A stretch of DNA of 50,297 nucleotides from Candidatus Methylomirabilota bacterium (lineage in GTDB: Bacteria > Patescibacteriota > Microgenomatia > Levybacterales > UBA12049). A program made the translations under genes and the position numbers. Shown piece by piece: positions 3,199-46,084 of this stretch. Under the pieces are notes generated by a model. That model made no database searches. It worked only from the letters and a program-made list of their open reading frames with translations, and was not told the origin of the DNA. The DNA lies in NCBI GenBank assembly GCA_035644155.1, contig DASQPC010000081.1, positions 1-50,297 on the forward strand. The letters run 5' to 3'. Each line of letters begins with the position of its first letter. Within the stretch, counting starts at the first letter, position 1.

Positions 3199-3686
3199 TT
3201 CTGTAATTTTTCAACTTTCTGCATTACATTATCATATAATTCTTTTTTATAGTTTTCAAGTTTTTTTTGTATGTCTTGATCTGCTGCTCCTATAATCCTT
3301 GCTGCTAACAGTCCAGCGTTTTTTGCACCATTGATTGCAACTGTTGCAACGGGAATTCCTCCTGGCATTTGCACAATCGAAAGAAGCGAATCAAGTCCTT
3401 CAAGATTTTTTCCTTTAACAGGTACGCCAATAACTGGAAGCGTTGTAAGTGATGCAACCATACCTGGAAGATGAGCAGCGCCACCTGCGCCAGCAATAAT
3501 AACTTTGAGTCCACGTGTTTGGGCTGTTTTTGCATATTCATACATACGATCTGGCGTTCGATGAGCTGAGACGATTGTTAATTCGTAAGCAATATCAAAC
3601 GTTTCCAAAATGGTTGCTGCTTCTTGCATGACAGGTAAGTCACTGTCTGATCCCATGATGATGCCAACGAGTGGTTGTTTATTCAT
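3195..3686 (-). CDS. purE: N5-carboxyaminoimidazole ribonucleotide mutase (class I PurE)
   Basis: 163 aa with [13 protein letters not shown] and [13 protein letters not shown] motifs. It is paired with purK, as expected for class I enzymes. Confidence 0.95.
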
Positions 3687-7351: not shown

Positions 7352-7352
7352 A

Positions 7353-8915
7353 TTAATGTTTAAATGCTCGTGTCCCGGTAAATACCATTGTAATACCAGC
7401 TTCGTTGCATGCATCAATTGTTTCTTGATCTCTGATTGATCCGCCAGGTTGAATAATTGCTGTTATACCAGCTTTTATCAATACATCCGGTCCGTCGCGA
7501 AATGGGAAAAATCCGTCAGTTGCTGCGACGGCATTTGTTAAAGGTTTTATTGCTTTACTAACGCAAAGTTCACAACATCGTTTACGATCTTGTTGACCAA
7601 CTCCTGATGCAAGGAGAGTATTATTTTTTACTGCTACAACACAATTGGATTTACTGACTTGACACAATTTCCATGCAAAAAGCAAATCAGCTAACTGATT
7701 TGTGTTTGGCTTTTTCTTTGTGACAATTTTTAATTGTTTTTTAGAAAGTTTTGCAATATCGACATCTTGCAGTAAAAATCCGCCACGAATTTTTCTAAGA
7801 TCCTTATAGGGAGTAAGGAATGGTTTTTCTAAAGATTTATTTTGTAACAATTGCAGTTTTGGTTTTTTTGCAAAAAGCGTGAGAGCATCCTTACTAAATG
7901 ATGGCGCAACAAGAATTTCAAAAAACTTTTTATCGGCAAGCATTTGTTCTGCAAGGTTTTTTGTAACAGTCCGATTGACAAAAATAATACCGCCAAATGC
8001 TGCCAACGGATCACCATCAAACCAAGCTTTCTGAAATGCATTTTCAACAGTCTCTGCGATTGCTGCTCCACAAGGATTGGTATGTTTTAAAATAACACAG
8101 GCAGGTTTGTCTCTTCCAATAAGGCACAATGTTTGTAATCCTGCGTCAAGATCCAGATAGTTACTGTAGGATGTTTCTTTCCCTTGGATTATTGTGAAAT
8201 TGCCAAGTCCAAGAATATCATTTGCATTCATATCTTTAAAAAATATTCCTGTCTGATGTGGGTTTTCTCCATAACGCAATGTTTTGCCATTTTGCAAGTT
8301 GATTTGTATGAGATCCCTCGACTCGTTTATCTCACTCGGGATGACAGTGGAGGAGGTCCTTTTTTGAAAATAATTTGCAATGAGACCATCATATTCTGCA
8401 ACATAGGAAAAGGCTTTTGCTGCAAGTTTTGTTCGAAGTGTTTTGCTTGTTGTACTATTTTTTCCAAGTGCTTTTTTAATTTCATCATAATCTGTTGGAT
8501 CGATAACAACAGTAACACTTTCATAATTTTTTGCTGCTGCACGGATCATCGTCGGTCCACCAACATCAATCATTTCAATTCCTGGTTTCCTCCAAAAGTC
8601 ATAAAAATTACAAATGACATAATCAATGTGAGGAATACGTAATTCTTTAGCTTCTTTCTGATGTTTTGTATTTGTTCGATCAAACAAAATTCCTGCAGCG
8701 ACTTGAAAGCTAATTGTTTTCATTCGTCCATCAAAACTTTCTGGAGAACCGGTTACCTGTTCAATGGGGGTAAAGGGAATGCCAGATTTTTTTAGATATA
8801 GTGCAGTGCCACCTGTTGAAATAATAGTGATATTTTTTTTGACAAACATTTTTGCCAAATCTTCAATTCCTGTTTTATCAAAGACACTGATAAGTGCGTA
8901 TGTTTGATTATTCAT
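7353..8915 (-). CDS. purH: Bifunctional AICAR formyltransferase / IMP cyclohydrolase
   Basis: 520 aa. The N-terminal MGS-like IMPCH domain shows ALISVFDKTGI and ISTGGTA. The C-terminal AICARFT domain shows RYGENPHQ and KHTNPCG. The interdomain linker carries the repeat-encoded segment TVIPSEINESRDL. Confidence 0.9.
   Translation of the reverse strand: MNNQTYALISVFDKTGIEDLAKMFVKKNITIISTGGTALYLKKSGIPFTPIEQVTGSPESFDGRMKTISFQVAAGILFDRTNTKHQKEAKELRIPHIDYVICNFYDFWRKPGIEMIDVGGPTMIRAAAKNYESVTVVIDPTDYDEIKKALGKNSTTSKTLRTKLAAKAFSYVAEYDGLIANYFQKRTSSTVIPSEINESRDLIQINLQNGKTLRYGENPHQTGIFFKDMNANDILGLGNFTIIQGKETSYSNYLDLDAGLQTLCLIGRDKPACVILKHTNPCGAAIAETVENAFQKAWFDGDPLAAFGGIIFVNRTVTKNLAEQMLADKKFFEILVAPSFSKDALTLFAKKPKLQLLQNKSLEKPFLTPYKDLRKIRGGFLLQDVDIAKLSKKQLKIVTKKKPNTNQLADLLFAWKLCQVSKSNCVVAVKNNTLLASGVGQQDRKRCCELCVSKAIKPLTNAVAATDGFFPFRDGPDVLIKAGITAIIQPGGSIRDQETIDACNEAGITMVFTGTRAFKH
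8310..8347. repeat. Degenerate copy of the palindromic element inside purH
   Basis: The reverse complement is CTGTCATCCCGAGTGAGATAAACGAGTCGAGGGATCTC. Its first 16 nt match the 45929 copy at 15/16. Gapped similarity follows (TAA(A)CGAG, G(G/A)GATCT). The right terminal repeat is missing. Confidence 0.55.
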
Positions 8916-8916
8916 T

Positions 8917-9930
8917 TTAATCTAAAATAATCTTTAATTTATTTTGTTCAATTGCTTCTTTTATTTCACGCGCAATTCGTCTCCCAGTACTCATTGGTTC
9001 ATTATAATACAACCAAGAATAAGCTGATCCATGAGTAAATAAATTTGTTCCCGCAACAATTCTACAAGAAATTTCAATAATAAAAAATTGCTGCTCAGGA
9101 CTAATAACCGTCTCAAGACAAAATGCGCCAAAAAGTCCCCTTCCATTCATGAGCTTTTGTGATGCTTCAATAACTCGCATTCCCATTTCATAAGCTTCAA
9201 CAAGCATTGCTTCGCGAAGTACCAAAGGACTATTACCAACAACGACATAACTCGGATTGATCTCCAACCCTTCTTGTCCAGCAAGCGGAATTCTCCCAAG
9301 AGAATCAACATTGGTTTCATAGCGTCTATCAATGCTCATAATTTCAAGCTTCCTCGTCAATAGCGAGTAAAAATAATGAACATAAAGAGGAACGCCGATA
9401 ACATACTCTTGAATAATAAATTGATTCGATCCCATTTGTTTTATCTTACTTTTATAATCTTTTTTGTCTTTTGCATAGAAGTATCCGCGTCCTCCAGCGG
9501 CTCCATACGATTTAACAATAACTGGATAGTTAATATCCCCAATTGTTTTGAATTGCTTTGGCATATTAATATTTGCTTTTTGCATCCATGCTCGCTGTTT
9601 GAGTCGATCTTCTTCCCAGTCCAAAACTTTTTTATTACCATAGTACATAACTTTCATTGTTCTATTTTTTTCAGCGCCAAGATATGCGACAAATGAACCA
9701 TGAGGGACAAGAATGACATTTTTTTTGATAAGCTGTTTTTCAATAGATGGAAAATCTCCAAATGAGTTTAATAGTATAAATTCGTCAATAAAGGGAAAGG
9801 TGCGATAGAATTTTTCTCTTTCGGCAGTTATGATAATCAATGTTTGGAATCCTTCATCTTTTGCGCCTTTTAAGATCTGCAATGCAGAATGGCTTCCAAG
9901 TGTTGCGATGATATATTTTTTATTTTTCAT
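8917..9930 (-). CDS. purP: Archaeal-type PurP-family ATP-grasp protein, paralog 2
   Basis: 337 aa with YIIATLGSHSALQILKGAKDEGFQTLII and C-terminal GRRIAREIKEA. It is clearly homologous to paralog 1 along its whole length but strongly diverged. Confidence 0.8.
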   Translation of the reverse strand: MKNKKYIIATLGSHSALQILKGAKDEGFQTLIIITAEREKFYRTFPFIDEFILLNSFGDFPSIEKQLIKKNVILVPHGSFVAYLGAEKNRTMKVMYYGNKKVLDWEEDRLKQRAWMQKANINMPKQFKTIGDINYPVIVKSYGAAGGRGYFYAKDKKDYKSKIKQMGSNQFIIQEYVIGVPLYVHYFYSLLTRKLEIMSIDRRYETNVDSLGRIPLAGQEGLEINPSYVVVGNSPLVLREAMLVEAYEMGMRVIEASQKLMNGRGLFGAFCLETVISPEQQFFIIEISCRIVAGTNLFTHGSAYSWLYYNEPMSTGRRIAREIKEAIEQNKLKIILD

Positions 9931-10731: not shown

Positions 10732-13700
10732 TTAATAATCTTTCAATGTTTCTCTATATGCTTTGGTTGCGTTATCGAGTTTAAGATTTATTATTTCTTT
10801 TTCTGTTAATCCGTTAATCAGTATTGTTGGGTCTTTGGTTACTTTGCCAATTTGTACAAATATATTGCCTTGCATCATTTTTTCAAATATTTCTTTATTT
10901 TCTTTTGCAATTGTGACAACGATTCTTCCCTGACTCTCTGAGTAAAGTGCAAAATCATCACGGTTTATTTGTCCAGGAATATTTTTTAGTGAAATATTCA
11001 GGCCGAGCATCCCACCAATTGCTTTTTTGGCAAGAGCAACTGCAAGCCCTCCGCGAGTAATACTGATACTGGATGCAATAAGATTTTTTTGTATTGCGTT
11101 GTAAAGTGTTTGATATAGCTTTTTATTTTTTTCTGCATGGACGTTTGGTACAACCGTACCATTTGTTTCAAGCATCGCAAAATATTCTGAACCGGCAAGT
11201 TCTTCATTTGTTTCTCCAAGAAGATAGACAAGATCTCCTGGGTTTTTTGCATCAAGGCTTACTACTTTTGTACTATCATCGATAACCCCAAACGATGATA
11301 TCAGAAGAGTTGGAGGAATAGAAAGCGTGAATTGATTATTATTTTTATCGAAACCTTTAAAGTCATTAAACATGCTATCCTTTCCGGAAACAAATGGTGT
11401 TTCATATATTGTTGCAAAATCATAACATGCCTTGGCTGCAAGTTTTAATTGTCCTAATCTCTTTGGATCATTGGCGCTACACCAACAGAAATTATCCAAA
11501 ATGGCAAGATGATCAGGATTTGCTCCGGCTGCAATTGCGTTACGTATCGCCGTATCAATTGCTGCGGCACTCATTCGATAGGGATCAATTTCACTATACG
11601 TTGGATACAAACCTTGTGACAGTATCACGCCTTTTTGTGAATGTAATACCGGTCGGATAACACTGGTCTCTCCATTAACTCGTCCACGTCCTTGCAATGG
11701 ACCTAAGATGTTATTCCCCTGTACAATATAATCATATTGCTCTGAAATAAATTCATAACTTGTGATATTAAGTCTTTGCAACATTGTTGTTAAAGATTTT
11801 GTGAGATTTTTCTGAAGAGGAATTGTTGTCTTAGTGGTTTCAGGTTTGACAAATGTTGTTTTCATTGGTCTTTGAGGAAGACCGTCATGCAGAAATTCCA
11901 TTGAGATATCCATAATTTTTTTCTTATCGTATGTTACGACACATCTTCTGCTTTTAGTAAATTTGCCAATAACAGTTGCTTCAACACCGCGACGCTTCAT
12001 CAAATCTACAAATTTTTTCCATTTTGTTTGTGGTACTGCAAGGGTCATCCTCTCTTGTGATTCAGAAACCCAAATTTCCCAAGGGTCAAGGCCAGGATAT
12101 TTGAGAGGTACTTTCTCAAGTTCAACTTCACAACCACCTGATTCTTTGGCCATTTCTGCAACAGAGCAGGAAAGTCCGCCAGCACCGTTATCAGTTATAC
12201 TATTATAAAAAAGCAAATCCCGTGCTTCTTTTACAAGTGCATCACTTAATTTTTTCTGCGTGATTGGATCACCAATTTGTACTGCTGTTGCTGGGCTGCC
12301 ACTATCCATTGCTTCTGATGAAAAGGTTGCGCCGTGAATACCATCTTTACCAACGCGTCCACCAATTATCACAATAAGATCACCTGGTTGTGCTTTCTTT
12401 TTATGTGATACTTTATTTTTAATTTTTCGCGGGATCAGTCCTACTGTTCCAACAAAAACCAAAGGTTTGCCACGATATCTTTCATCAAAATACACAAATC
12501 CCTGTGGCGTTGGAATTCCTGATTGATTGCCACCTGCATTAACTCCGTCAATGACTCCAAGCATGATTCGTTTGCTTGAAAGCATTTTTTGTGTTTTGTC
12601 ACGACCTTTGTATAATGGTATATCGATACGTGGGTCTGCAAAACAATAACCATAAAAATTTGCAATAGGTTTTGCTCCAAGTCCAAAACCAAGAGCATCC
12701 CGATTAACACCGACAATACCAGTAATCGCGCCACCAAATGGATCAAGGGCTGATGGGCTATTATGTGTTTCTACTTTGTGTGTTACCAAATAGTCCTCAT
12801 CGAAAGCAATCGCTCCAGAATTGTCAGTAAAAACAGAGACACAAAAATCTTTTTTGCCTTTTTTCTTTCTAATTTCTTCGGTTGCTTGTTTAATATATGT
12901 TTTATACAATCCATCTTTTAATTCATCCATTGGATCAGCAAAAATAGTATGTTTACAATGTTCAGACCAAGTTTGTGCAATTGATTCAAGCTCAATGTCT
13001 GTCGGATTTCTTTTTTGTTTTTTAAAATATGCTTGGATGGTTTTCATAAATATGAGATCAAGCGCTAGTGGTCCACGTCTCGTCCCATCACTATTTGCAA
13101 TTCCTGATTTGCCAATTTTTATTAATTCGTCATCCGTTACATTCAGATTTACTTCAGCAACTTGTGGCTCTTTTTGTAATTTCACTTGCGGAATAATAAT
13201 ATCCATGCCGCCATCTTTGATAAAATCTTCAAAATTTTTTATATGCATTCGTTGAATGAGAGGATTATACATACTTTCTGCAATTTCAAGTGCTTCTTTT
13301 TTTGAAATATTGCCAATCAGAAATGTCAGCTGAGATATATAGACATTTTCTCCATCAACAAATGCATTTTTAAGTAAGTCACTTATTGTTTCTTTGGCAG
13401 TATTTGCAATATTGTCAGTAACACCCGGAAGAAAACCTATTTCGATTGCAAAAGAGAATTGTTGATTCGGTTTACCTTTTATTTCTTGGGTAACTGGATT
13501 GGAAAGCGCAGAAGAAATTTTATTTATTTCTTCTGCGGTGAAAGGTTTATCTATTGTATAGACATCAGCAATTGTCACGTCTTTAATATTTTTATTTATC
13601 TGAACGATTTTTTCCTTTCTGACAGCTGCGCGAGTATCAAGAACTTTTGGAAAAATTTCAAGTCGTGAAGTTGCATTTTGTATCATTATTCTTCCGATAT

Positions 13701-14961
13701 CTTTCCTATATTGCATACCATCAAAATGGATTCCGTTTTCACCGATGACTGCATATGCTTTCTCAAGTGCGACGTTGAGATTTTTACCAACAGCGGTTAT
13801 TCCCAAAACGCGTCCACCATTAGTGACAATTTTGTTCTCAATTTTTTTTGTTGCAAAGTGAAAGACAACAATATCCTTTGTTTTTTCTGCTTTTTCTAAA
13901 CCTTTAATAATATCACCTTTATGAAAACCAGCAGGATACATTTTTGATGCTAAGACAATACAACATGCAAAGTTTTTACTCCATGTAATTTTTTGCTTAG
14001 CAAGTGTGCCGTCAACACATGCATGCAAAATATCAAATAAATCAGATTCGAGAAGCCGCATGTAGGATTCAATTTCAGGATCGCCAAAACGGCAGTTAAA
14101 TTCAACAACTTTTGGTCCATCTTTTGTCATCATAAGACCGGGATACAAACAGCCGACAAATTTCATGCCACGTTTTTTCATGCCTTTGATTGCAGGAATC
14201 ACAATTTTCTTTTTAATTTCTTCAAGTTGTTTTTCTGTGATTTCAGGAAGTGGTACGATAGTGCCCATTCCTCCAGTATTTGGTCCCTGATTTCCTTCAA
14301 AAATTGGTTTATGATCACGATTGGTTGGGAAGAGGGTGACATTCTCTCCATCAGAAAGTGCATGAATTGAAACTTCTTTCCCTTCCAAAAATTCTTCAAT
14401 CACAACTTGATCACCAGCAGCGCCAAAAATCTTTGTTACCATAATATCCTCAAGTGCTTTTGCTGCTTCTTCGTGAGTTTTTGCAATAATGACACCTTTG
14501 CCAAGTGCCAAACCGCTGGCTTTAATGACAATTGGTAGTGATTGTTTGGTGAGATACTTTTGAGCCTTTGTAAAATTGGTGAATGTTTCATATTTTGCAG
14601 TTGGTATATTTTCTTCTTGCATCAGTTGTTTGGCGAATGCTTTTGATGCTTCAATTTGTGCGGCTTTTTTTGATGGGCCAAAGATTTTAAGGTTTTGTTT
14701 TTGGAAAGCGTCGACAATGCCTGCTGCTAAAATAGCATCTGGAGCTGCAACGGTAAAATCAATATTTTCTTTTTTCGCAAATGCGATTAATGCTTCAAAA
14801 TCAGTTGCAGCAATCCCTGTGCTTATTCCAATTGTTTCAGTCCCAACAGTTCCTGGAGCAAAGTATATTTTGCTCACTTTTGGAGACTGTTTTAATTTCC
14901 AACCAAGTGCATGTTCACGTGCGCCAGAAGCAACTATTAAAATAGTATGTTTTTTTACCAC
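10732..14961 (-). CDS. purD-purL: Fusion protein: GAR synthetase (PurD), PurS-like/large-PurL N-terminal domain, and FGAM synthase (PurL)
   Basis: 1409 aa.
- Residues 1 to about 425 are PurD (ILIVASGAREHALGWKL, ATP-grasp, NGGRVLGITA).
- Residues about 430-590 form a PurS-like domain (GFLPGVTDNIANTA).
- From about residue 600 it is PurL (NPTDIELESIAQTWSEHCKHTIF, VETHNSPSALDPFGGA, GKDSMFN).
There is no internal stop and no separate purS ORF in the cluster. Confidence 0.85.
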   Translation of the reverse strand: MVKKHTILIVASGAREHALGWKLKQSPKVSKIYFAPGTVGTETIGISTGIAATDFEALIAFAKKENIDFTVAAPDAILAAGIVDAFQKQNLKIFGPSKKAAQIEASKAFAKQLMQEENIPTAKYETFTNFTKAQKYLTKQSLPIVIKASGLALGKGVIIAKTHEEAAKALEDIMVTKIFGAAGDQVVIEEFLEGKEVSIHALSDGENVTLFPTNRDHKPIFEGNQGPNTGGMGTIVPLPEITEKQLEEIKKKIVIPAIKGMKKRGMKFVGCLYPGLMMTKDGPKVVEFNCRFGDPEIESYMRLLESDLFDILHACVDGTLAKQKITWSKNFACCIVLASKMYPAGFHKGDIIKGLEKAEKTKDIVVFHFATKKIENKIVTNGGRVLGITAVGKNLNVALEKAYAVIGENGIHFDGMQYRKDIGRIMIQNATSRLEIFPKVLDTRAAVRKEKIVQINKNIKDVTIADVYTIDKPFTAEEINKISSALSNPVTQEIKGKPNQQFSFAIEIGFLPGVTDNIANTAKETISDLLKNAFVDGENVYISQLTFLIGNISKKEALEIAESMYNPLIQRMHIKNFEDFIKDGGMDIIIPQVKLQKEPQVAEVNLNVTDDELIKIGKSGIANSDGTRRGPLALDLIFMKTIQAYFKKQKRNPTDIELESIAQTWSEHCKHTIFADPMDELKDGLYKTYIKQATEEIRKKKGKKDFCVSVFTDNSGAIAFDEDYLVTHKVETHNSPSALDPFGGAITGIVGVNRDALGFGLGAKPIANFYGYCFADPRIDIPLYKGRDKTQKMLSSKRIMLGVIDGVNAGGNQSGIPTPQGFVYFDERYRGKPLVFVGTVGLIPRKIKNKVSHKKKAQPGDLIVIIGGRVGKDGIHGATFSSEAMDSGSPATAVQIGDPITQKKLSDALVKEARDLLFYNSITDNGAGGLSCSVAEMAKESGGCEVELEKVPLKYPGLDPWEIWVSESQERMTLAVPQTKWKKFVDLMKRRGVEATVIGKFTKSRRCVVTYDKKKIMDISMEFLHDGLPQRPMKTTFVKPETTKTTIPLQKNLTKSLTTMLQRLNITSYEFISEQYDYIVQGNNILGPLQGRGRVNGETSVIRPVLHSQKGVILSQGLYPTYSEIDPYRMSAAAIDTAIRNAIAAGANPDHLAILDNFCWCSANDPKRLGQLKLAAKACYDFATIYETPFVSGKDSMFNDFKGFDKNNNQFTLSIPPTLLISSFGVIDDSTKVVSLDAKNPGDLVYLLGETNEELAGSEYFAMLETNGTVVPNVHAEKNKKLYQTLYNAIQKNLIASSISITRGGLAVALAKKAIGGMLGLNISLKNIPGQINRDDFALYSESQGRIVVTIAKENKEIFEKMMQGNIFVQIGKVTKDPTILINGLTEKEIINLKLDNATKAYRETLKDY

Positions 14962-17078
14962 GGAAAATCTCCTTTACTGACATCAATATTATGACGAAGA
15001 ACATGCAGGATGCGTTTAATAGCAGTTGGAAATAATTGGTGTTCTGTCTCATCCATTCTCTGTCTCCAAGACTCAAACGGCTCATCATGTTTGATTCGGA
15101 CTTCTGCTTTCATAATAACAGGCCCAACGTCAACGCCGTCTCCAGGAAGAACTTGATGAACTGAAATACCTGAAACAGGAAGTTTTTTGGCAAACGTTTC
15201 TTGCCAAACACTTTCTCCACGTAAAACAGGAATTATTCCTCTTGACGTTTTGACAGTCGTTGCGGAGTCATTTGTTAAAAGAGCAGGATGATGATTGATA
15301 ACAGGAATTTGTAACTTTTGCATCTCTTTCAAAAATGAATCGCTCAAAATGAAAAGCCAACCAGATAAAAGAATCATATCAGGTTTTGTCTCTTGTACAT
15401 AGGAGATAAGCTTTTCTTCATATTTTTGTCTTGCAGTTTTGTCTGAGAATTTCCCTTCATATGTAATAGTTGTCGTTGGAATATTATTGTTCTTTGCACG
15501 AGTTAGTCCATAAGCATCTTTTTTATTTGAAACAATATGTGTTATTTCGGCATCAATTGTTTTGTGTTTTATGCCATCAATAATATCTTGAACAAATGTT
15601 CCTTTTCCAGAAATAAAAATACATATTTTTGGTTTGTTTCCTATTTTCTTTTTCAGTTTAGGAAAAACAAATTGTTTGCCTCTTACTGGATGAGGACCAC
15701 CAAAAGGATACCAATAAAAATCTTCAGGTTTTCCTCCCATTGCTTTGGTTGTCTCTTCAATGGGAAGATAGATTACTTCATCTGCATCAATAAGTTCTGC
15801 AATTTTTTTTTCAATTACATCAAAAGGTTTTTTCTGAAAACGAGATGCTGGTAAATCTTTTTTGCTGCGCATATCAATTCCTAAATCACATTGGTTTACA
15901 ACAGGAGGACTGGCAATGCCCATATACACTTCTTTTGCGCCGGCACTTCGTAATGACTGAATCAATGCTTTACTTGTTGTAAGTCGCACCGCTGAATCAT
16001 CAACCACGACAACTTTTTTTCCAAGAATTTCATCGGGAACAATATTATGTTTGCCATTAACTGCTCTCGTTCTGTTTTCTTGTCCAGGTTGAATAAATGT
16101 TCGTCCGACATAATTACTTGTTGTAATAGCGTCAATAATTGGAAGTTTCAAAAATTGTGCAACGCCTTTTGCTGCTGGGTAACCTGATTCAAAAATTGGT
16201 ATGACAGCATCTGGTCGTATGTTCTTTTTTGCGATTCGTTCACCAAGAAAATTTCCTGATATTTCTCGTCCTGTTCTGACCCGTCTGCCATTGATAAAAC
16301 TATCAGGTCTAGCAAAATAAACATATTCAAAAAGAGAATGGTGTGACTTTTTAGGTGCGCCAAAAAAATAAGAAGTCATTTTGCCGTCCTCTGTAATTTT
16401 TATCATTTCTCCTGGTATAACATCGCGGACAAAATCTGCGCCAATTGCATCAAGCGCTACTGATTCAGAAGCAATAACCCATCCATCATGTAATTTACCA
16501 AGACACAGTGACCAAATACCATAAGGATCTCGGATAGCAAAAAGTGAATGATCATTGGTTAATAAAACAAAATTGTATGCTCCTTTACATTGTGGTAATA
16601 TAGCAATTAATGTTTCTTCCCAAGAAGAAAAGGTTGGTCTTTTTTTTAAAAGTACTCGGGCAACAAGCGTTGTGTCACTAGTAATTTTTTTTCGTTCGTT
16701 GAGTTCTTGACGAAGATTTGTCATATCTGGGATGTTGCCATTATGTCCGATACTTAATTGGTATTTCCCATTTTTTAATTCTATTGGTTGGGCATTTTCT
16801 AAAGCTCCTCCACCAGAAGTTGCATAGCGGTTATGTCCAATTGCTAGTTTGCTTTTACCTAACTTTTTAAGAACTGTTTCGGTCAAAACAGTAGGAACAA
16901 GCCCCATGTTTTTATACGTCACAATTTTTCCTGTTGGTTTACAGATGCTTATGCCAGCGCTTTCTTGTCCGCGATGTTGAAGAGCGGACAAACCTTGTTT
17001 GACAAAATAAGGTGCATGATTACTTGTCGTCCAAACACCTATTACTCCACATTTTTCTCGTAAAGATTTATTTCCCAT
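14955..17078 (-). CDS. purF-purN: Fusion protein: amidophosphoribosyltransferase (PurF) and GAR formyltransferase (PurN)
   Basis: 707 aa.
- Residues 1 to about 480 are PurF: an Ntn-type Cys after a 9-residue propeptide (MGNKSLREK|CGVIGV), RGQESAGI, and the PRTase loop VVVVDDSAVRLTT.
- Residues about 482-707 are PurN (KICIFISGKGT, INHHPALL, SVHQV). Confidence 0.85.
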   Translation of the reverse strand: MGNKSLREKCGVIGVWTTSNHAPYFVKQGLSALQHRGQESAGISICKPTGKIVTYKNMGLVPTVLTETVLKKLGKSKLAIGHNRYATSGGGALENAQPIELKNGKYQLSIGHNGNIPDMTNLRQELNERKKITSDTTLVARVLLKKRPTFSSWEETLIAILPQCKGAYNFVLLTNDHSLFAIRDPYGIWSLCLGKLHDGWVIASESVALDAIGADFVRDVIPGEMIKITEDGKMTSYFFGAPKKSHHSLFEYVYFARPDSFINGRRVRTGREISGNFLGERIAKKNIRPDAVIPIFESGYPAAKGVAQFLKLPIIDAITTSNYVGRTFIQPGQENRTRAVNGKHNIVPDEILGKKVVVVDDSAVRLTTSKALIQSLRSAGAKEVYMGIASPPVVNQCDLGIDMRSKKDLPASRFQKKPFDVIEKKIAELIDADEVIYLPIEETTKAMGGKPEDFYWYPFGGPHPVRGKQFVFPKLKKKIGNKPKICIFISGKGTFVQDIIDGIKHKTIDAEITHIVSNKKDAYGLTRAKNNNIPTTTITYEGKFSDKTARQKYEEKLISYVQETKPDMILLSGWLFILSDSFLKEMQKLQIPVINHHPALLTNDSATTVKTSRGIIPVLRGESVWQETFAKKLPVSGISVHQVLPGDGVDVGPVIMKAEVRIKHDEPFESWRQRMDETEHQLFPTAIKRILHVLRHNIDVSKGDFPW

Positions 17079-17099
17079 ACTTTAGTAATTTTTAAGAAT

Positions 17100-17124
17100 A
17101 AAAAAAACCCGCAGTTGTGCGGGT
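17100..17124 (-). terminator. Intrinsic-terminator-like hairpin in the purine operon leader (candidate attenuator)
   Basis: The minus strand reads A-CCCGCA-CAAC-TGCGGG-TTTTTTTT: a 6-7 bp GC-rich stem, a 4-nt loop and an 8-T run. It ends 21 nt before the purF::purN ATG and lies downstream of the promoter. Confidence 0.5.
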
Positions 17125-17168
17125 AAAAAGGTAGAGTCTACCAATAAATATTTAAATGATTATTAGGC

Positions 17169-17181
17169 TGCCAATTGGGCA
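17169..17181 (-). promoter_or_regulatory. Operator-like near-palindrome just downstream of the pur promoter
   Basis: The minus strand reads TGCCCAATTGGCA, with half-sites TGCC/GGCA around CCAATTGG. It begins about 6 nt after the predicted transcription start. Confidence 0.3.
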
Positions 17182-17193
17182 TTTCCATAATCC

Positions 17194-17222
17194 TTTATAA
17201 AATAAATATTTCTTGCTGTCAA
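17194..17222 (-). promoter_or_regulatory. Sigma70-like promoter of the purine operon
   Basis: On the minus strand, TTGACA (17222-17217), a 17-nt spacer, then TATAAA (17199-17194). It sits about 115 nt upstream of the purF::purN ATG. Confidence 0.5.
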
Positions 17223-17270
17223 GTAGGAGAAGAGTTGCTTTCATTACAGAAAACCCTCACAATAGGATAA

Positions 17271-19383: not shown

Positions 19384-19839
19384 TTATTCCCCGCTTTTAT
19401 TAAATATTTCTTGTATAGTTTTTTTCAAAACGGGATGGATAAAATTTGAGTCAAGATCCATAAATGGTTTGAGAACAAAGTCTCGTTCTGCAATTTTTGG
19501 ATGAGGGATTTGAAGGGTTTCGTTTTTGAAAATAAGATTATTATAAAAGAGAATATCGATATCAATTTCTCGTGGTCCATTACGAAATCTTTCTTTTCTT
19601 CCGATTTGTTTTTCTAACTGTTTTGCAAAATTAAGAAGTTCAATTGGTGAGAGTTTTGTTTCTCCTTTTAGGACAGTATTTAAAAAAGTATCTTGTTGTT
19701 CAAGGTACATCGGTTTGGTCTCATAAAGTTTGGCAACGGAAATATTTTTGACATGTTTTTCCAGAAGTTTGATTGCTTTATTAATATTTTCTTTTTTATT
19801 TTCTATGTTTGAGCCAAGTGCAAGAAAGATAATATGCAT
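19384..19839 (-). CDS. folK: 2-amino-4-hydroxy-6-hydroxymethyldihydropterin pyrophosphokinase (HPPK)
   Basis: 151 aa with the motifs IFLALGSN, REIDIDILFY and LQIPHPKIAERDFVL. Confidence 0.9.
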   Translation of the reverse strand: MHIIFLALGSNIENKKENINKAIKLLEKHVKNISVAKLYETKPMYLEQQDTFLNTVLKGETKLSPIELLNFAKQLEKQIGRKERFRNGPREIDIDILFYNNLIFKNETLQIPHPKIAERDFVLKPFMDLDSNFIHPVLKKTIQEIFNKSGE

Positions 19840-19875: not shown

Positions 19876-21939
19876 TCATGCATTTTTCAGAATAGCTTCT
19901 GTTAGAGCTTTTGCTTTGAGGAGCATTTCTTCATATTCTTTTTGTGGATCTGAATCTATGAGTATTGCTCCGCCTGTTCCGATAGTGACAGTATTATTTT
20001 TTATGATCATCGTTCTGATGACAATAGCAAGAAGTGCAGTCTGGTTAAGACTTAAAAATCCAAGTGTCCCGGAATAAATGCCTCGGGTTTTTTTTTCAAG
20101 ATCTTCAAGAATTTCCATGCTTCGTAATTTTGGCGCACCTGTCATTGATCCGCCTGGAAAACATGCTTTAATGCAATCAATAAGTGTTACATCATTTCGC
20201 AGTTTTCCTTTTATCGTTGAAACAAGTTGATGAACTGTTTCGTAAGATTCAATATCCATGAGTTTTTCAACTTTAACAGATCCAAATTCACAGACTTTTC
20301 CAAGATCATTTCGTAGGAGATCGACAATCATTGCATTTTCTGACCAATCTTTTTTGCTTGATTGTAATTGCTTGGTAAGTTTTTTATCTTCTACTTTTGT
20401 CCGACCGCGCTTACGTGTTCCTTTAATTGGTTTTGTTTCAACGATACCATTTTGATCAATCTTTAAAAACTCTTCTGGTGAGGATGAAAGTATTGAGAGA
20501 TCATTATATTTGATATAGGCAGCATAAGGTGCTGGATTAATTTTTCGTAAGGTTTGGTAAATATGAAATGGATCTGTTTTTGTTTTCGTTGTTAAAGTAT
20601 TTGTTAAACAGATTTGATAACTTTCTCCTTTTGCCAAATATTTTTTACATATCGCGATATCTTTAAGATATTGCTGATGATTTCGATCAAGGTGAAAATT
20701 TATTTGAGAGTTGTTATGGTGAATAGGTTTCGTCTCAGGATGACGGAGTATTTGGAGTTTTTTCTTTATTTCTCCAAACCATTTTTCAGCCGCAGTTTTA
20801 TTTTTTGCCAAACAGACTAAGAAGACTTTTTTTTCTTGATGATCAAAGACTATTGTTTGTGTCGTAAAATACCAAAGACTATCGGGATAAGGCGAGATAT
20901 ATTTTTGTTGTTTTTTCTGGTTGTTTTTTAATTCATAGCCAAAGTATCCGACATAGCCGCCGATAAAAGGAAAGGGAAGATCAGAATTTCTTATTAATCG
21001 CTTTTTTAGCTGCTGATTCAAATAGAAAAAGATATTTTGATCAATCTGTTTGGTCGTTACTTTTTTTTGTACGATAATTTTTTTAGCTTTGATTGAGTAA
21101 GTAATTATTTCAGTTGGTATTCCCATGTACGAAAATCTGTTTTTATCATTAGGAAGATTACTATCAAGCCAAAAAGCATTTTGTTCTTTTGCAAAAAGCG
21201 TTATGAAGATATCTTCAGGGTCAATCCAATCAGAGAGTTGTTGATAGTGAATGAAACTTTTTTTACTATAACTTTTCTCCGCAAGATCAATAATTTTTTT
21301 TATTCTTTGCAGTAATTTTTCTGCGTTTTGTAGTTTTTTACCATTGATATGACTTACTTTTTGAATACGTAAGCTGTTTACCAAGACTAATGGGCCATTT
21401 GTATTTTCTGGAATATCTTCTTCGATGACTTTTATATTTTCCATGATGAGTTGCCTGGTAATTCCTTTGAGTCCTTTGCCAGCAAGTGGAGGGGTGATAA
21501 TTTCTCCTTTTTTATTTAATGAAAAAATATTACAAATTGTTGATTCGATAAATTTTTGATCTTTCACGAAGAGTGCGTCATCTGTGCCTTTTTTTTCTGC
21601 AATTTTTTTGGCTTTTTCGTTAACAAGACGATTAGTTGTTTTATATATTTTAGTAGCATCACGGGTGTCGGGAAGAGAAATAACTTTTACTCCTTTTTTT
21701 ATTTTTGGCAGTTCACGATGCTGAAAAGTTATTTCATTATTTTGTTGAACAGTAATATGTAGTGAGCAATTTTGTAAATTATTTTGCGTGAGATATGTTA
21801 CTATCTGTTTTTCTAAATCGAGAGGAGGTGAAGGGAAACCAAGTGCTTTACCATGATCCGTTAAGCGTTTTTGATGTTTTTCAGAAAAAAGTGGTATGCC
21901 ATTTTTGATTTTTAGAGTTGTAAAAATGCCAATATGCAT
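19876..21939 (-). CDS. pabC-pabB: Fusion: aminodeoxychorismate lyase-like (PabC, N-terminal) and aminodeoxychorismate synthase component I (PabB, C-terminal)
   Basis: 687 aa. The N-terminal ~220 aa are class-IV aminotransferase-like (KIYKTTNRL, GITRQLI). The C-terminal chorismate-utilising domain shows PGGSMTGAPK and RGIYSGTLGF. Confidence 0.75.
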   Translation of the reverse strand: MHIGIFTTLKIKNGIPLFSEKHQKRLTDHGKALGFPSPPLDLEKQIVTYLTQNNLQNCSLHITVQQNNEITFQHRELPKIKKGVKVISLPDTRDATKIYKTTNRLVNEKAKKIAEKKGTDDALFVKDQKFIESTICNIFSLNKKGEIITPPLAGKGLKGITRQLIMENIKVIEEDIPENTNGPLVLVNSLRIQKVSHINGKKLQNAEKLLQRIKKIIDLAEKSYSKKSFIHYQQLSDWIDPEDIFITLFAKEQNAFWLDSNLPNDKNRFSYMGIPTEIITYSIKAKKIIVQKKVTTKQIDQNIFFYLNQQLKKRLIRNSDLPFPFIGGYVGYFGYELKNNQKKQQKYISPYPDSLWYFTTQTIVFDHQEKKVFLVCLAKNKTAAEKWFGEIKKKLQILRHPETKPIHHNNSQINFHLDRNHQQYLKDIAICKKYLAKGESYQICLTNTLTTKTKTDPFHIYQTLRKINPAPYAAYIKYNDLSILSSSPEEFLKIDQNGIVETKPIKGTRKRGRTKVEDKKLTKQLQSSKKDWSENAMIVDLLRNDLGKVCEFGSVKVEKLMDIESYETVHQLVSTIKGKLRNDVTLIDCIKACFPGGSMTGAPKLRSMEILEDLEKKTRGIYSGTLGFLSLNQTALLAIVIRTMIIKNNTVTIGTGGAILIDSDPQKEYEEMLLKAKALTEAILKNA

Positions 21940-27149: not shown

Positions 27150-28025
27150 ATGAGTAGAAATCTTTTTTTATTTTCTTTTATTCTATTTTTGGTTTCTTTT
27201 GTTTTTGTCACCCAATCTCGTGCTGCTACAATAACGGTGAGCAGTGATAGTGATACCTTATCATCGGATGCAATATATACTGTTCATGTAGCTCTCAATA
27301 TCAATACTGGCAATGATACAGTCTATTATCTTCGTGGTGTCTTTTTTAAACCTAATACCAGTAGTTACTGCGGATACACATGGAATGGAGATACGTGGTT
27401 TGCTGGCCCTTATTCAACAGATAGTGGTTGGAAAAAATTTTTACCAATTACCATAACGGATAACGGCTGGGAAGGAGAGCTGAAAACAAAAATAGATGCA
27501 AGCAGTACTGGATGTAAAGATTCAGGAGCATACAACTTTAAAATTCAAAGATTTACTTCATCCGGTTCAGGCAGTTTTGATGAGCAAAACGTACAAACAG
27601 TTTCTGTTGTTATTCCAACAGCTCTGCCATCCCCAACAAATTCTCCAACTCCAACAAGAATACCAACCCCCACCAAAATTCCTACCCCAACCAAAGAACC
27701 AACCCCAACAAAAATGCAAACTCCGACAAAAACAAATTCAACACCAAGCATAAGTCCTTCTACAATTGTTACAAAAACTGTATCAAATCTCCTTACATCA
27801 GCAACCACAACGCAAGGTGCAAGCTTGAGTGGTATGCCAACCGCAATACTGGGTGCAAATGCAATTTTGTCTAAGCACAATACACAGTCACTAAAAAATA
27901 AAAAAGTCTTAGGTACTTCTGTAAAGCAAGGCAATATTTTAAGTAGCATTTTTCTTTTCATAGGTGCATTATTATTTATAGCCTGTGGTATACTGGTCTA
28001 TCTTAGGAAGAAAAAGAGAGAGTGA
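27150..28025 (+). CDS. Surface protein: signal peptide, globular domain, Pro/Thr repeat linker, C-terminal TM anchor with a basic tail
   Basis: 291 aa. The N-terminal signal is LFLVSFVFVTQSRA|AT. The linker is PSPTNSPTPTRIPTPTKIPTPTKEPTPTKMQTPTKT. The C-terminus is IFLFIGALLFIACGILVYLRKKKRE. Confidence 0.6.
   Translation: MSRNLFLFSFILFLVSFVFVTQSRAATITVSSDSDTLSSDAIYTVHVALNINTGNDTVYYLRGVFFKPNTSSYCGYTWNGDTWFAGPYSTDSGWKKFLPITITDNGWEGELKTKIDASSTGCKDSGAYNFKIQRFTSSGSGSFDEQNVQTVSVVIPTALPSPTNSPTPTRIPTPTKIPTPTKEPTPTKMQTPTKTNSTPSISPSTIVTKTVSNLLTSATTTQGASLSGMPTAILGANAILSKHNTQSLKNKKVLGTSVKQGNILSSIFLFIGALLFIACGILVYLRKKKRE
27627..27737 (+). repeat. Imperfect in-frame 18-nt tandem repeats encoding (PTPTKx)n
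   Basis: ccaac(a/c)ccaac(a/c)aa-type units are visibly reiterated about 5 times and translate to the PT-rich linker. Confidence 0.7.
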
Positions 28026-40181: not shown

Positions 40182-41870
40182 ATGTATTATAAAAGTTTTT
40201 TTCTTTTGTTTGTTTGTTTTGTTTTAGTCACCTTATTTTTCCCCATTACTGCGTCTGCACAGACTACTTGGACTCGTCAATTTGGCACATCTGGACAGGA
40301 TATAGGTACTGCAGTAGCTACTGACACGACAGGTATTTATACTGTTGGCTATACGAGCGGAAGTTTTCCTGGTGAAACTAATGCAGGTAGTTATGATGTC
40401 TATGTTCGTAAATACGATTTTTCTGGAAATATAGTCTGGACACATCAGTTAGGGACGTCGGATTTTGACCAAACATGGAGTATTGTTGCTGTTAATAACA
40501 GCGTGTATGTTGCTGGGCATCTCTATCCCAACGGTTTTCTTAGAAAATATGACCAAAATGGTAATGAAGTCTGGACACATACATTTGATTTTGGCCATGG
40601 CTTGACTTACGCAATGGGCGTTGCTTCAGATGGGACCTCTCTGTATGTTGCAAGTATGACAACAGGCGCAATAACAGGACAAGTCAATGCAGGGAACTAT
40701 GACGTTGTTGTGCAAAAGGAAGACTTTGATGGAAATATTATTTGGGAGCGACAGTTTGGTAGTGCTGGTGCTGATCAGACGAATGGCATTGCTGTGAATA
40801 ATACAGGAGTTTATGTTGATGGTTTTACGAGAGATTCATTGCTTGGGCAAATAAATGCTGGTAATTCTGATGCTTTTATTAAAAAGTATGATCTTGATGG
40901 CAACGATATTTGGACACATGAATTTGGTACGGCGGGCGAAGATTTTGGTAATGGTATAGCTATAGATTCTACAGGAGTATATGTCTCAGGAACAACGAAT
41001 GATAGCTTCCCAGGACAGACTAATATTGGTAATTACGATGCATTTCTAAGAAAATATGATTTTAGCGGTAGCGAAGTGTGGACACGAGAGTTTGGAACAT
41101 CAGGGCCGGACGAAGCACGAGGTGCATATGCAAACGCTCAAGGAGTATATATATCAGGATATCAACAAAATAATGCGTTTGTCCGTATTTATGATACAGT
41201 TGGTAACGTACAAAATACTTATGACTTTATTCCTTCAAGCGATGCAGTAGGATATGGTGTGACTGCTGATAATTCCTACTTTTATACGACTGGTTTAGTT
41301 GATGGTAATTTTGAAGGGGAGACAAGTAGCGGTAGTACAGATGCATATCTCATAAAACAAAGCATTCTTCCTTCTCCCCAGCTAACAGCTCTAACACCAG
41401 CTAAAGTATGGATAGGGGTAAAAAATATAACCGATATTGGAATAAAGCTTGATCTGTTAGCAGAAGTTTATGCAGGAGGTACATTAGTTAGTAGTGGAGA
41501 GGTTACTAGTTTTTCGCCAGCAAGTGGATTAGGAGGATTTGGTAGTGCCCATCTAGCAACAATACCTTTTAATAGTTTTACATCAGTAGATTTTCCAAGC
41601 GGAACGTCATTACAAATAAAGCTATCAGTAAGAAATGCTTGCACAGGATCGTTACGTGCTATGGGGACAGCAAGACTATGGTATAACGACAGTCAAGCAA
41701 ATAGCCAATTTGGATCAACGGTTGGATCAAGCACCAATGATTATTTCCTTAAAGACGGGTTTGTATTATCCACAACAGCAGGGACAGGACCAAAGAAGAC
41801 TATAGACGTTGAGGCAGGAGCAAGGTGTAGTGCCTTCAAACCATTTGGTATCTGGACTACTACTCCATAA
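40182..41870 (+). CDS. Secreted SBBP-type beta-propeller repeat protein with a C-terminal beta-rich domain
   Basis: 562 aa with a signal peptide (FPITASA|QT). About 7 tandem ~45-55-aa repeats follow the pattern FGTsGxDxgxgiAvDsTGvYvxGxTxgxfpGqtNaGxyDafvrKYDxxGnxvWTxqFGT. Confidence 0.7.
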   Translation: MYYKSFFLLFVCFVLVTLFFPITASAQTTWTRQFGTSGQDIGTAVATDTTGIYTVGYTSGSFPGETNAGSYDVYVRKYDFSGNIVWTHQLGTSDFDQTWSIVAVNNSVYVAGHLYPNGFLRKYDQNGNEVWTHTFDFGHGLTYAMGVASDGTSLYVASMTTGAITGQVNAGNYDVVVQKEDFDGNIIWERQFGSAGADQTNGIAVNNTGVYVDGFTRDSLLGQINAGNSDAFIKKYDLDGNDIWTHEFGTAGEDFGNGIAIDSTGVYVSGTTNDSFPGQTNIGNYDAFLRKYDFSGSEVWTREFGTSGPDEARGAYANAQGVYISGYQQNNAFVRIYDTVGNVQNTYDFIPSSDAVGYGVTADNSYFYTTGLVDGNFEGETSSGSTDAYLIKQSILPSPQLTALTPAKVWIGVKNITDIGIKLDLLAEVYAGGTLVSSGEVTSFSPASGLGGFGSAHLATIPFNSFTSVDFPSGTSLQIKLSVRNACTGSLRAMGTARLWYNDSQANSQFGSTVGSSTNDYFLKDGFVLSTTAGTGPKKTIDVEAGARCSAFKPFGIWTTTP

Positions 41871-44724: not shown

Positions 44725-45900
44725 ATGAATCGCAAACCTGCCTTGATTTTTCTTGGAATAGTTGTTTATGTCCTCAGTACACTTGTCTCGTATGCCATTT
44801 TTTCAGGATCGTCAGTGTTATCAAAAATTGGAGGAGGTCAGCAATCCTCTCAGACTGCAAAAATAACCAATGACTATCAAGCCTTAACCTTTGATCCAAC
44901 GGCGGCAAAGACAGAAGAATGTCCTCTCAATGGCACAATGTATTCTCAAGATGAAAAAAATTGGTGGGAAAAGCATAGACCTTTGGGAGTTATGATTGAA
45001 AATCATTTCGATGCGCGTCCACAGTCAGGTATTAACGCAGCAGATGTCACTTATGAAGCAGTTGCCGAAGGAGGAATTACTCGAACACTTAATGTATATT
45101 ACTGCCAAGACGCAGGTATTGTCGGACCCGTTCGTTCTGCTCGTACATATTTCTTAGATTTTATTTCTGAGTATGGTGATTATCCACTCTATGCGCATGT
45201 CGGTGGGGCAAATACGCCAGGGCCGGCGGATGCATTAGGTCAAATAGGTGACTATGGGTGGAATCAATATAACGACCTTAATCAATTTTCAATTGGATTC
45301 CCAACATTCAAGCGTGATGAAAGCCGATTGGGAAGAGAAGTCGCTACAGAACACACAATGTATTCAACAACAAGTCAATTGTGGGCTGTTGGTGTACAAC
45401 GAGGACTTACCAATAAAGATAAGAAAGGAAATTCGTGGGATGATACGTTTGTAAAATATTCTTTCAAAGACAATCCTGACTTATCAAGTAGACCAGCAGC
45501 ACAGAGTATTCATATTGATTTTTGGAGCGATTCTAATTATGCAGTTGACTGGACGTATTCTGCAAAGCAGAATGAATATTTGCGTAAGAATGGCGGGGTA
45601 CCGCACATGGATCGCAATACAAACAAACAACTATCAGCCAAGAATATCGTTGTTCTCTTTATGAAAGAGTCTCACGCAAATGATGGCTATGAAGACAATG
45701 CACACATGCTCTATGGCGATAAAGGAACTGGGCAAGCGTTGGTCTTTTTGAATGGTAATGAAATCAAAGGTACATGGAAGAAAGCGGATAGAACATCACG
45801 AACATTGCTGCTTGATAGTACCGGTCAAGAGATCAAATTTACGAGAGGAAAAATTTGGTTTGAAATCCAACCGCTCGATGCAGAAATATTAGTTAAATAA
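44725..45900 (+). CDS. DUF3048 (YerB-like) extracytoplasmic protein
   Basis: 391 aa with an N-terminal TM/signal anchor. RPLGVMIENHFDARPQSGINAADVTYEAVAEGGITR is the characteristic DUF3048 N-terminal block. Confidence 0.65.
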   Translation: MNRKPALIFLGIVVYVLSTLVSYAIFSGSSVLSKIGGGQQSSQTAKITNDYQALTFDPTAAKTEECPLNGTMYSQDEKNWWEKHRPLGVMIENHFDARPQSGINAADVTYEAVAEGGITRTLNVYYCQDAGIVGPVRSARTYFLDFISEYGDYPLYAHVGGANTPGPADALGQIGDYGWNQYNDLNQFSIGFPTFKRDESRLGREVATEHTMYSTTSQLWAVGVQRGLTNKDKKGNSWDDTFVKYSFKDNPDLSSRPAAQSIHIDFWSDSNYAVDWTYSAKQNEYLRKNGGVPHMDRNTNKQLSAKNIVVLFMKESHANDGYEDNAHMLYGDKGTGQALVFLNGNEIKGTWKKADRTSRTLLLDSTGQEIKFTRGKIWFEIQPLDAEILVK

Positions 45901-45928
45901 ACGTACGTATTCAATTTTTCCTAAAATA

Positions 45929-45998
45929 CTGTCATCTCGAGTGATAACGAGAGATCTTATTGAGATTTCTCAGCCAATACTTGGCTTGGAAATGACAG
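45929..45998. repeat. 70-nt structured palindromic element (longest copy of a dispersed repeat family)
   Basis: CTGTCATCTCGAGTGATAACGAGAGATCTTATTGAGATTTCTCAGCCAATACTTGGCTTGGAAATGACAG. The terminal inverted repeats are CTGTCAT/ATGACAG. Internal hairpins are CTCG-8nt-CGAG, AGATCT-5nt-AGATTT and AGCCAA-3nt-TTGGCT. See the copies at 4461-4500 and 8310-8347. Confidence 0.75.
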
Positions 45999-46084
45999 CC
46001 TACTGAAGAAAACTGAATATTTATAAATAAACCTCTTGTATTCTAAGGATATCCGCGCTAAAATGTATAAAAAATTACCCTATT

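Follow-up and report, generated by a model that had tools for sequence, protein, structure and literature searches.

Among the closest described relatives of the element analysed here are the CGTC-tagged repetitive extragenic palindromes (REPs), which have been divided into the families CGTC-1 to -4 (Di Nocera, De Gregorio & Rocco 2013, BMC Genomics 14:522; PMC3733652). By the published definition, they carry the tag CGTC (variants TGTC and CCTC) followed by a stem of 8-9 bp with complementary A and T at positions 1-2, a loop of 4-5 nucleotides (nt) and a short unpaired tail with the consensus CCA (PMC3733652). They occur mostly as dimers, often heterodimers, and the majority lie downstream of open reading frames (ORFs), where they are plausibly transcribed; in-frame copies within genes encode peptides like VIAGLDPAIH...DARVKPAHD (PMC3733652). 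The Neisseria repeat dRS3 belongs to this group, as do RPE-4 and RPE-6 of Rickettsia conorii, which equal CGTC-4 and CGTC-1 (PMC3733652). The 2013 survey reported neither a dedicated transposase nor any RAYT flanked by CGTC units, and left mobilisation by RAYTs or other transposases open (PMC3733652). Here we describe element A, a 70-nt palindrome at 45929-45998 of the window, by which we mean the whole stretch of 50,297 nt that was analysed (contig DASQPC010000081.1), from a Roizmanbacteria-like member of the Patescibacteria.

A second line of work concerns SsnA of Neisseria meningitidis, a 94-aa single-domain GIY-YIG protein (Chenal et al. 2025, Nat Commun 16:2388; PMC11893778). SsnA binds its target, the NTS (CGTCATTCCCGCGMAVGCGGGAATCYRG), only as single-stranded DNA (ssDNA) and not as RNA, and its cut falls a few nucleotides upstream (PMC11893778). 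Cleavage depends critically on the 3 nt that precede the palindrome, binding on the C that directly follows it, and ssn genes across phyla are flanked by 'Ssn-related motifs' (SRM) (PMC11893778).

We read element A as a gene-less inverted hairpin dimer of the CGTC-REP/Ssn superfamily, resembling a miniature inverted-repeat transposable element (MITE), non-autonomous and with an Ssn-type nuclease mechanism, and give this reading a probability of roughly 0.7. It draws on the architecture that places A in the superfamily, the wide distribution of the repeats, hairpin covariation, GIY-YIG genes beside related loci, and presence/absence polymorphism. Element A adds a new host lineage (Roizmanbacteria-like Patescibacteria) to a superfamily that has been described before, and is not novel in kind.

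Architecture of element A and its copies in the window

The window holds three such elements, A, B and C, with the following parts:

45929-45998, + strand: element A, complete and gene-less, a heterodimer of two TGTC-tagged hairpin units in inverted orientation, tags outward
45930-45956, + strand: left unit of A; tag TGTC at 45930-45933, stem ATCTC/GAGAT, tandem G.A/A.G, then G-C and T-A, loop GATA
45957-45963, no strand: 7-nt spacer between the units of A, TTATTGA
45964-45997, - strand: right unit of A, TGTC-ATTTC-CA-[AGCCAA GTA TTGGCT]-GA-GAAAT-C
4461-4500, - strand: element B, a truncated dimer within the purK ORF 3686-4861 (- strand)
4473-4499, - strand: full unit of B, with one stem mismatch (C.T) and loop GATA
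4461-4472, + strand: remnant of the partner unit of B, a 12-nt tag end
8312-8346, - strand: element C, a single complete unit within the purH ORF 7353-8915, TGTC-ATCCCGAG-14-nt loop-CGAGGGAT-C

A previous inspection of the letters without database searches (the sequence-only reading) had proposed a 70-nt palindromic intergenic element at 45929-45998. The element is real, and its letters are exactly those quoted. On its left, 28 nt separate it from the stop of a DUF3048-family gene (44725-45900); on its right, 86 nt lie between it and the ATG of a 191-aa ORF, which is followed by secD/secF. The flanking genes are co-directional. Its terminal inverted repeats begin CTGTCAT (CTGTCAT/ATGACAG), are perfect over 7 bp as had been stated, and give it TG...CA termini. 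As comparison with related copies shows, the repeat unit is a ~27-nt hairpin on one strand and not the 70-mer. The right unit of A has the same outer stem and tag as the left, with a 6-bp hairpin in place of the inner part, and a C at 45956 stands immediately 3' of the left palindrome. The TGTC tags lie at 45930-45933(+) and 45997-45994(-) in A, at 4499-4496(-) in B and at 8346-8343(-) in C, and the units in the window read C-TGTC-AT...AT-C. The architecture of the left unit is supported by the family statistics and covariation given below.

Compared with the published description rather than with the consensus of a numbered family, the tag, stem opening and multicopy dimer organisation agree, at the level of sequence, with those of CGTC-tagged REPs. 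Shared features are the tag (often TGTC), the A/T stem opening, loops that are mostly short, inverted dimers and heterodimers, a position downstream of an ORF, in-frame copies encoding VI...(N/D)D peptides, and the lack of an adjacent transposase. The differences are a tandem G.A/A.G as an invariant stem feature (counts below), a tail of C-T rather than CCA, the Patescibacteria (Roizmanbacteria-like) host, and an occurrence in phyla beyond the five of 2013. In A and B the loop is GATA (4 nt), in C it has 14 nt and in most members 3-4 nt, and the tail is C (93/99 units) and then T.

Element A folds better than shuffled sequences, both as RNA (z-scores of -4.3 and -5.0 for the two strands) and as DNA (-3.5 and -3.9), with roughly equal strength on both strands; as DNA, the right unit reaches -7.0 kcal/mol (z -3.8). 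The minimum-energy DNA fold of A consists of a closing stem and three hairpins, and to this extent the cloverleaf of the sequence-only reading stands. The middle hairpin, however, is specific to A; family-wide conservation is restricted to the two unit hairpins and the terminal pairing, and the middle is a variable spacer.

Such a fold could also belong to a structured RNA, whether a cloverleaf or a long hairpin in the 3' untranslated region of the DUF3048 gene, acting as an mRNA stabiliser, terminator or processing site, with the family as an RNA module. The position of A downstream of a stop and between co-directional genes would suit this, and so would the RNA fold (z -4.3), a weak terminator-like match that overlaps the left unit, and the location of most REPs downstream of ORFs, where they are plausibly transcribed (PMC3733652). 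Yet folding is about equal on both strands, no intrinsic-terminator-like T-run is seen after the closing stem of A, the middle arm of the 'cloverleaf' is unconserved, and two of the three window copies lie within coding sequence and are translated. Rfam covariance models gave no match at the gathering score in the whole window, and a permissive search of 45850-46080 (E <= 10) returned only chance-level matches (E >= 0.25); ARAGORN found no tRNA or tmRNA in the window. What is conserved (the 5' GTC tag, the C after the stem and the tandem G.A) are features that matter to an ssDNA-binding nuclease, and SsnA, the characterised enzyme that partners the related NTS, works on ssDNA without binding RNA (PMC11893778). 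An RNA module, which had been raised as an alternative from the sequence, thus finds no specific support here, and we regard it as quite unlikely.

With at most one mismatch, CTGTCATYYCGAG occurs four times in the window (4461+, 4488-, 8335-, 45929+), compared with 0.18 expected from shuffles, and none of 100 shuffles reaches four. The 29-nt left part of A had been reported to recur at 27/29 within 4461-4500, and it is indeed found again, at 4472-4500(-), with a chance expectation of 0. A reported 15/16 match (8335-8347) is right but understated, as 8312-8346(-) is a complete single unit. The sequence-only reading had missed that the copies at 4461-4500 and 8310-8347 are coding, and also a fourth related TGTC-tagged hairpin (TGTCATCTCGAACTTGTTTCGGAATCC) of another subfamily. 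This one lies outside the window on the same contig, ~4.8 kb past the window's left end (L185:19634-19660), inside a 797-aa ORF without a Pfam match, and brings the loci with TGTC-tagged hairpins on the contig to four. Scanning the window for more CGTC-type hairpins gave 11 candidates, compared with 6.5 in shuffles, of which only the known sites were convincing. Chance or a convergent coding constraint, with no repeat family at all, could be argued from there being just three window sites, two of them coding; against the shuffled counts, the hundreds of copies elsewhere and the fact that the coding copies are insertions relative to orthologues, its probability is negligible. The earlier statement that the similarity is beyond chance therefore holds.

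A dispersed family of hairpin repeats

To find related elements, we searched a species-representative genome collection for the exact ends, i.e. the 13-nt CTGTCATYTCGAG and the 10-nt GARATGACAG with a gap of 17-47 nt. This pattern occurs at 66 genome loci, for which we estimate a chance expectation of ~2. Hosts include Bacteroidota (Pontibacter, Mucilaginibacter, Prevotellaceae), Delta-, Gamma-, Beta- and Alphaproteobacteria, Chloroflexota, Patescibacteria, Omnitrophota, Planctomycetota and others; two loci labelled Rickettsiales also have the exact ends (L016, L024). An A+T-rich variant, TGTCATYTCGAGNGATAACGAGA, was found at at least 118 metagenome loci. The element pattern had no match in 2.9 million viral contigs.

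In the commonest form of the family, which is ~95 nt long, the left and right units are separated by a variable, palindromic spacer. Three compensatory pair changes distinguish its two arms, each of which therefore folds on itself. In related elements the spacer between units is 5-60 nt long, variable and often itself palindromic. The design of A, in which a simple unit is joined to a unit with an inner G+C hairpin, is also found in L191 (13219-13292), L003, L010, L019 and L033.

Each unit consists of the tag (C/T)GTC, a stem of A-T, T-A, Y-R, T-A and C-G, the tandem G.A/A.G, two further pairs, a loop of 3-4 nt and a C. The stem has 9 positions, of which positions 6-7 are G.A/A.G, leaving 7 Watson-Crick pairs. 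This simple hairpin layout fits 99 of 157 distinct units, selected solely by their pairing at stem positions 1-5. Within these 99 units, position 3 is T-A in 52 and C-G in 42, while position 8 is A-T in 43, G-C in 37 and C-G in 13. The tandem mismatch has G.A in 94 and A.G in 91, and the C just past the stem is found in 93, as well as in A, B and C; GTC is invariant. The A-T, T-A opening is present in all units of both sets examined (99/99 in the layout set and 47/47 in the covariation set).

Covariation supports the unit hairpin. The 47 ungapped units score 0.264, compared with 0.103 in shuffles, and 0/500 shuffles reach this value. Doubly changed cells number 42, where 13 are expected, and controls in which the pairing was slid score at most 0.106. 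A strand asymmetry (G-U versus A-C) was also considered as an argument for RNA and was dropped; the search pattern had fixed the orientation of the hits, and the differences between arms are compensatory within each unit.

Target-site duplications are absent from all 67 aligned copies, and no consensus emerges from the flanks. The lack of target-site duplications is as in REPs and fits a REP-like reading. It tells against a MITE derived from an insertion sequence (IS) with a DDE transposase, even though the 7-bp perfect terminal inverted repeats (beginning CTGTCAT, with 5'-TG...CA-3' ends) and the existence of short gene-less derivatives of a longer form are what such a MITE would show. The 1.2 Mb of flanking sequence searched yielded no transposase either, and the interior of the element consists of two self-folding, covarying units rather than the remains of a deleted IS interior, which makes a DDE origin highly improbable.

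Copies are also stacked on one another. At L013:4174-4317, L017:7301-7439, L054:2416-2600 and L012:1-300 and in a ~150-nt subfamily (L087, L103, L113, L128), they are either nested, with several left ends followed by several right ends, or arranged in 69-nt tandem arrays. Such arrangements point to new copies having entered the loops of older hairpins or the positions beside their tags. The flanks of the ~150-nt subfamily look tRNA-like by eye, but ARAGORN detected no tRNA or tmRNA there; they are the arms of older host copies.

All three window sites are empty in syntenic relatives (B and C in L188, A in L191). In L191, the spacer between the DUF3048 gene and the 191-aa ORF is 88 nt long and lacks the element, compared with 184 nt in the window, and its promoter-proximal part aligns well. 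Conversely, L191 has A-like heterodimers between secD/secF and inside recJ (13219-13292, 19444-19523), and L188 has an CGTCATTGCGAG-type dimer between purK and purE (9045-9114), at sites that are empty in the window. The copies have been gained and lost over evolutionary time, as seen in this presence/absence polymorphism. The closest 'empty' relatives have only ~75% protein identity, and the spacers do not align.

The sequence-only reading had proposed a REP/MITE-like dispersed repeat, and the hundreds of related copies elsewhere, the presence/absence in relatives, the nested and tandem copies and the lack of target-site duplications bear this out. It had named two outcomes that would have spoken against it. 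One was an absence of further copies and covariation, where we found 66 genome loci, at least 118 metagenome loci and covariation; the other was a match to an Rfam family or an IS terminal repeat, where we found no Rfam match and an element that is not an IS end.

A GIY-YIG partner gene in related loci and a possible mechanism

Small GIY-YIG ORFs (98-109 aa; PF01541, E ~1e-16) were found at eight loci of the TGTCATYTCGAG class (L069, L098, L166, L180, L123, L025, L035, L052), lying ~20-170 nt from the units or inside one dimer. At L069, L098, L166 and L180, full dimers stand directly beside the GIY-YIG gene on both sides, and homologues of this first group are named GIY-YIG nuclease family protein and come from Mucilaginibacter. 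L123 has the same arrangement, with a frameshifted copy of the gene. At L035 and L025, the gene lies between the two units of a single dimer, like an IS, whereas at L052 it is flanked by full dimers with an extra right-unit end just past its stop. These loci come from Bacteroidota (Mucilaginibacter-like), Chloroflexota (an Anaerolineales) and Beta- and Gammaproteobacteria (a Gallionella and a Methyloglobulus). The Methyloglobulus gene (L025:513-776) has an in-frame TAA where its homologues have GAA (Glu), and is likely a decaying copy or a sequencing error.

When ORFs of 90 aa or more around the 66 genome loci were clustered, neither a recurrent protein family nor a transposase emerged. The size cut-off and the cross-locus clustering nearly hid the small GIY-YIG genes, which were recovered by a motif search and tblastn, and they are the sole recurrent neighbour gene found. 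The sequence-only reading had recognised no transposase or known RNA family. There is no Rfam match and no classical transposase, but the family is a known one, and related loci have a small GIY-YIG partner. With unit-gene-unit loci in existence, gene-less dimers like A are most readily understood as their non-autonomous derivatives.

A might instead be a classical REP/REPIN, moved by a RAYT. RAYTs, which are Y1 HUH transposases (IS200/IS605-type), would recognise the hairpin and cleave it at the tag, and the general logic would be alike. Such GTAG REPs and REPINs with their RAYT transposases are reportedly the subject of work by Nunvar in 2010, Bertels and Rainey in 2011 and Ton-Hoang in 2012. 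Like the elements here, they combine in concept a tagged ssDNA hairpin, inverted doublets, clustering, a flanked single-copy domesticated nuclease gene and no target-site duplication. They differ in having a GTAG tag instead of TGTC/CGTC and an HUH Y1 enzyme instead of GIY-YIG. No RAYT was found near our elements, where no protein family of at least 90 aa recurs at the 66 genome loci and GIY-YIG is the only recurrent neighbour. The 2013 survey left a role for RAYTs open, but it too saw none flanked by CGTC units (PMC3733652), and we consider mobilisation by a RAYT very unlikely.

The NTS/SRM system offers another parallel. In both, a hairpin palindrome has (C/T)GTCAT on its 5' side and a C directly behind it, many copies are gene-less, and ~100-aa single-domain GIY-YIG genes are flanked by repeats (here in related loci) in a unit-gene-unit arrangement. 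The bases that are functional in the NTS, GTC 5' of the palindrome and C 3' of it, are present in the units of A, B and C. The differences are an A+T-rich stem with G.A mismatches in place of the G+C-rich YYVSBR, and no ssn gene in 57 kb of contig.

By analogy with SsnA and the NTS in N. meningitidis, a unit would fold when its DNA becomes single-stranded during replication, repair or uptake. A small stand-alone Ssn-type GIY-YIG endonuclease would then bind the folded unit and nick it a few nucleotides 5' of the tag. The full element would be unit-nuclease gene-unit, resembling an insertion sequence, and gene-less dimers such as A would be its non-autonomous derivatives. Intergenic landings, as in A, would persist, and so would in-frame landings in tolerant surface loops, as short peptides (B in PurK, C in PurH). 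We infer that an Ssn-type enzyme recognises this particular sequence class, and that this enzyme, or recombination triggered by its nicks, spreads the repeats. Such an enzyme presumably exists, or existed, in this genome.

Several observations weigh against this mechanism or against membership in the Ssn group. The published SRM pattern, HGTCWYN(0-2)YYVSBRHN(0-5)WNVSBRGN(0-2)RNCYNB, is matched by an NTS control but not by units A, B or C, the family consensus or the Mucilaginibacter-type arms; for a match, 1-2 symbols would have to be relaxed, at the tandem G.A and the tail. The nuclease gene is present at just 8 of ~184 element loci. By tblastn, neither the window nor the 57 kb of contig examined contains a GIY-YIG gene, nor is there one beside the elements at the Patescibacteria loci examined (L018, L054, L061, L063, L187-L191). 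The GIY-YIG proteins were assigned by the Pfam GIY-YIG family and not by CDD cd10448, which defines Ssn. Spread of repeats by an Ssn enzyme is a hypothesis for every member, Neisseria included (PMC11893778). By nearest-neighbour energies, the left unit of A alone reaches only -3.5 kcal/mol as DNA (z -0.55), and unit C is not predicted to be stable (z +0.74). These two hairpins have no folding advantage over shuffles and therefore rest on the family covariation and on the stability of G.A, for which the model gives no credit.

Insertions in PurK and PurH

Elements B and C lie within intact ORFs and are translated in frame. The PurK ORF with B is 391 aa long, and B encodes 13 of its residues. 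In the 520-aa PurH ORF, 8310-8347 encodes TVIPSEINESRDL, and C is translated as (T)VIPSEINESRD in the linker from the IMP cyclohydrolase to the AICAR transformylase domain. Aligned to the window PurK, the T. maritima PurK 3ax6 has a clean 14-aa gap facing element B. The syntenic relative L188, with a 75% identical PurK, has 11 aa fewer in PurK and ~10 aa fewer in PurH, at exactly the sites of B and C. B and C are therefore in-frame insertions, with sizes of 33-40 nt (11-13 aa).

The PurK loop that holds element B is also extended elsewhere. The best 120 PurK homologues are most often 375 aa long, and 24 of them reach 385 aa or more. Of the long homologues, 21 were aligned, and nearly all had their extra residues at this loop, with varied insertions; the peptides include VISSDSERSR...GRNDK, VIPSEERVEESH...AQDDT and VIPAKAGIQKS...GVGDDK. 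In the related organism L187, the insert DNA at the same loop is a near-canonical NTS (TGTCATTCCCGCGAAGGCGGGAATCCAG) with an inverted partner, i.e. a dimer, which is a further likeness to the NTS/SRM system.

In-frame palindromes of this kind are reminiscent of Rickettsia palindromic elements (RPEs), which are said to have been described by Ogata and co-workers in 2000 and 2002 and by Claverie and Ogata in 2003, with the classical RPE-1 reportedly 100-150 bp long and confined to Rickettsia. Both kinds lie in frame in unrelated housekeeping genes, give peptides at tolerated surface positions, also occur between genes, and are absent from orthologues. The inserts here are shorter (33-40 nt), and any kinship would run only via the short RPE-4 and RPE-6, through their equation with CGTC repeats in the literature.

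The window PurK has a second insertion of 5 aa, THSSNSGQA (window 4022-4087, residues ~265-273; DNA ...TCGTCAAACTCAGGACAAGC...), common to the orthologues P0014, P0019 and P0110 and absent from L188, which may be a remnant of another short repeat family. The surrounding purine operon is unusual in that it includes a 1409-aa ORF with GARS, FGAR-AT and AIRS domains (10732-14961(-)) and a 707-aa ORF with amidotransferase, phosphoribosyltransferase and Formyl_trans_N domains (14955-17078(-), purF-purN-like). Two PurP-like (DUF1246/DUF1297) paralogues, at 6260-7417(-) and 8917-9930(-), flank an ordinary purH, and their 5' ends have a common 90-nt stretch that is 74% identical.

Near 17080-17270 the large ORFs diverge, those to the left all lying on the - strand and those to the right mostly on the + strand. 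The sign of the GC skew also flips there, with a cumulative minimum near 16 kb, and no dnaA was seen. Were this a replication origin, A, B and C would each have their intact tagged units on the lagging-strand template; a divergent operon boundary is the alternative. Elsewhere, the window holds a 687-aa ORF at 19876-21939(-) that joins an aminotransferase class IV to an anthranilate/aminodeoxychorismate synthase component I (a pabC-pabB-like fusion), an 18-nt tandem repeat (CCAACNCCNACAAAAA-like, 5 copies) at 27627-27732 inside ORF 27150-28025, and a beta-propeller (SBBP) repeat protein gene (ORF 40182-41870) with four 43-nt direct repeats at 40401-41085.

Ultra-small Patescibacteria are thought to rely on DNA uptake. 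A more far-reaching proposal is that hairpins of the form TGTCAT-YTC-GA...GA-GARAT-C are a distinct class of Ssn-site specificity, spread over more than 10 phyla, missed by the SRM pattern and with the tandem G.A as its identity element. In Patescibacteria they might then be not just decaying relics but a working system that gates the integration of incoming ssDNA, like NTS/SsnA in Neisseria, and as a by-product repeatedly remodels the surface loops of core enzymes, with the PurK loop as a hot spot. As a whole, we think this proposal unlikely.

At the strength of the reading given above, an unannotated 70-nt palindrome of an uncultured Patescibacteria finds a place in a superfamily whose partner enzyme was characterised only in 2025. 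The published SRM motif misses a large A+T-rich, G.A-mismatch class that is spread over many phyla, and the unit-gene-unit loci are concrete sources of candidate site-specific ssDNA nucleases with a different recognition sequence. In PurK and PurH, the 11-13 aa segments are repeat-derived insertions and not lineage-specific protein features, and the same applies to about one in five related PurK proteins. Small ORFs with VI...ND peptides in such genomes should be suspected of being spurious.

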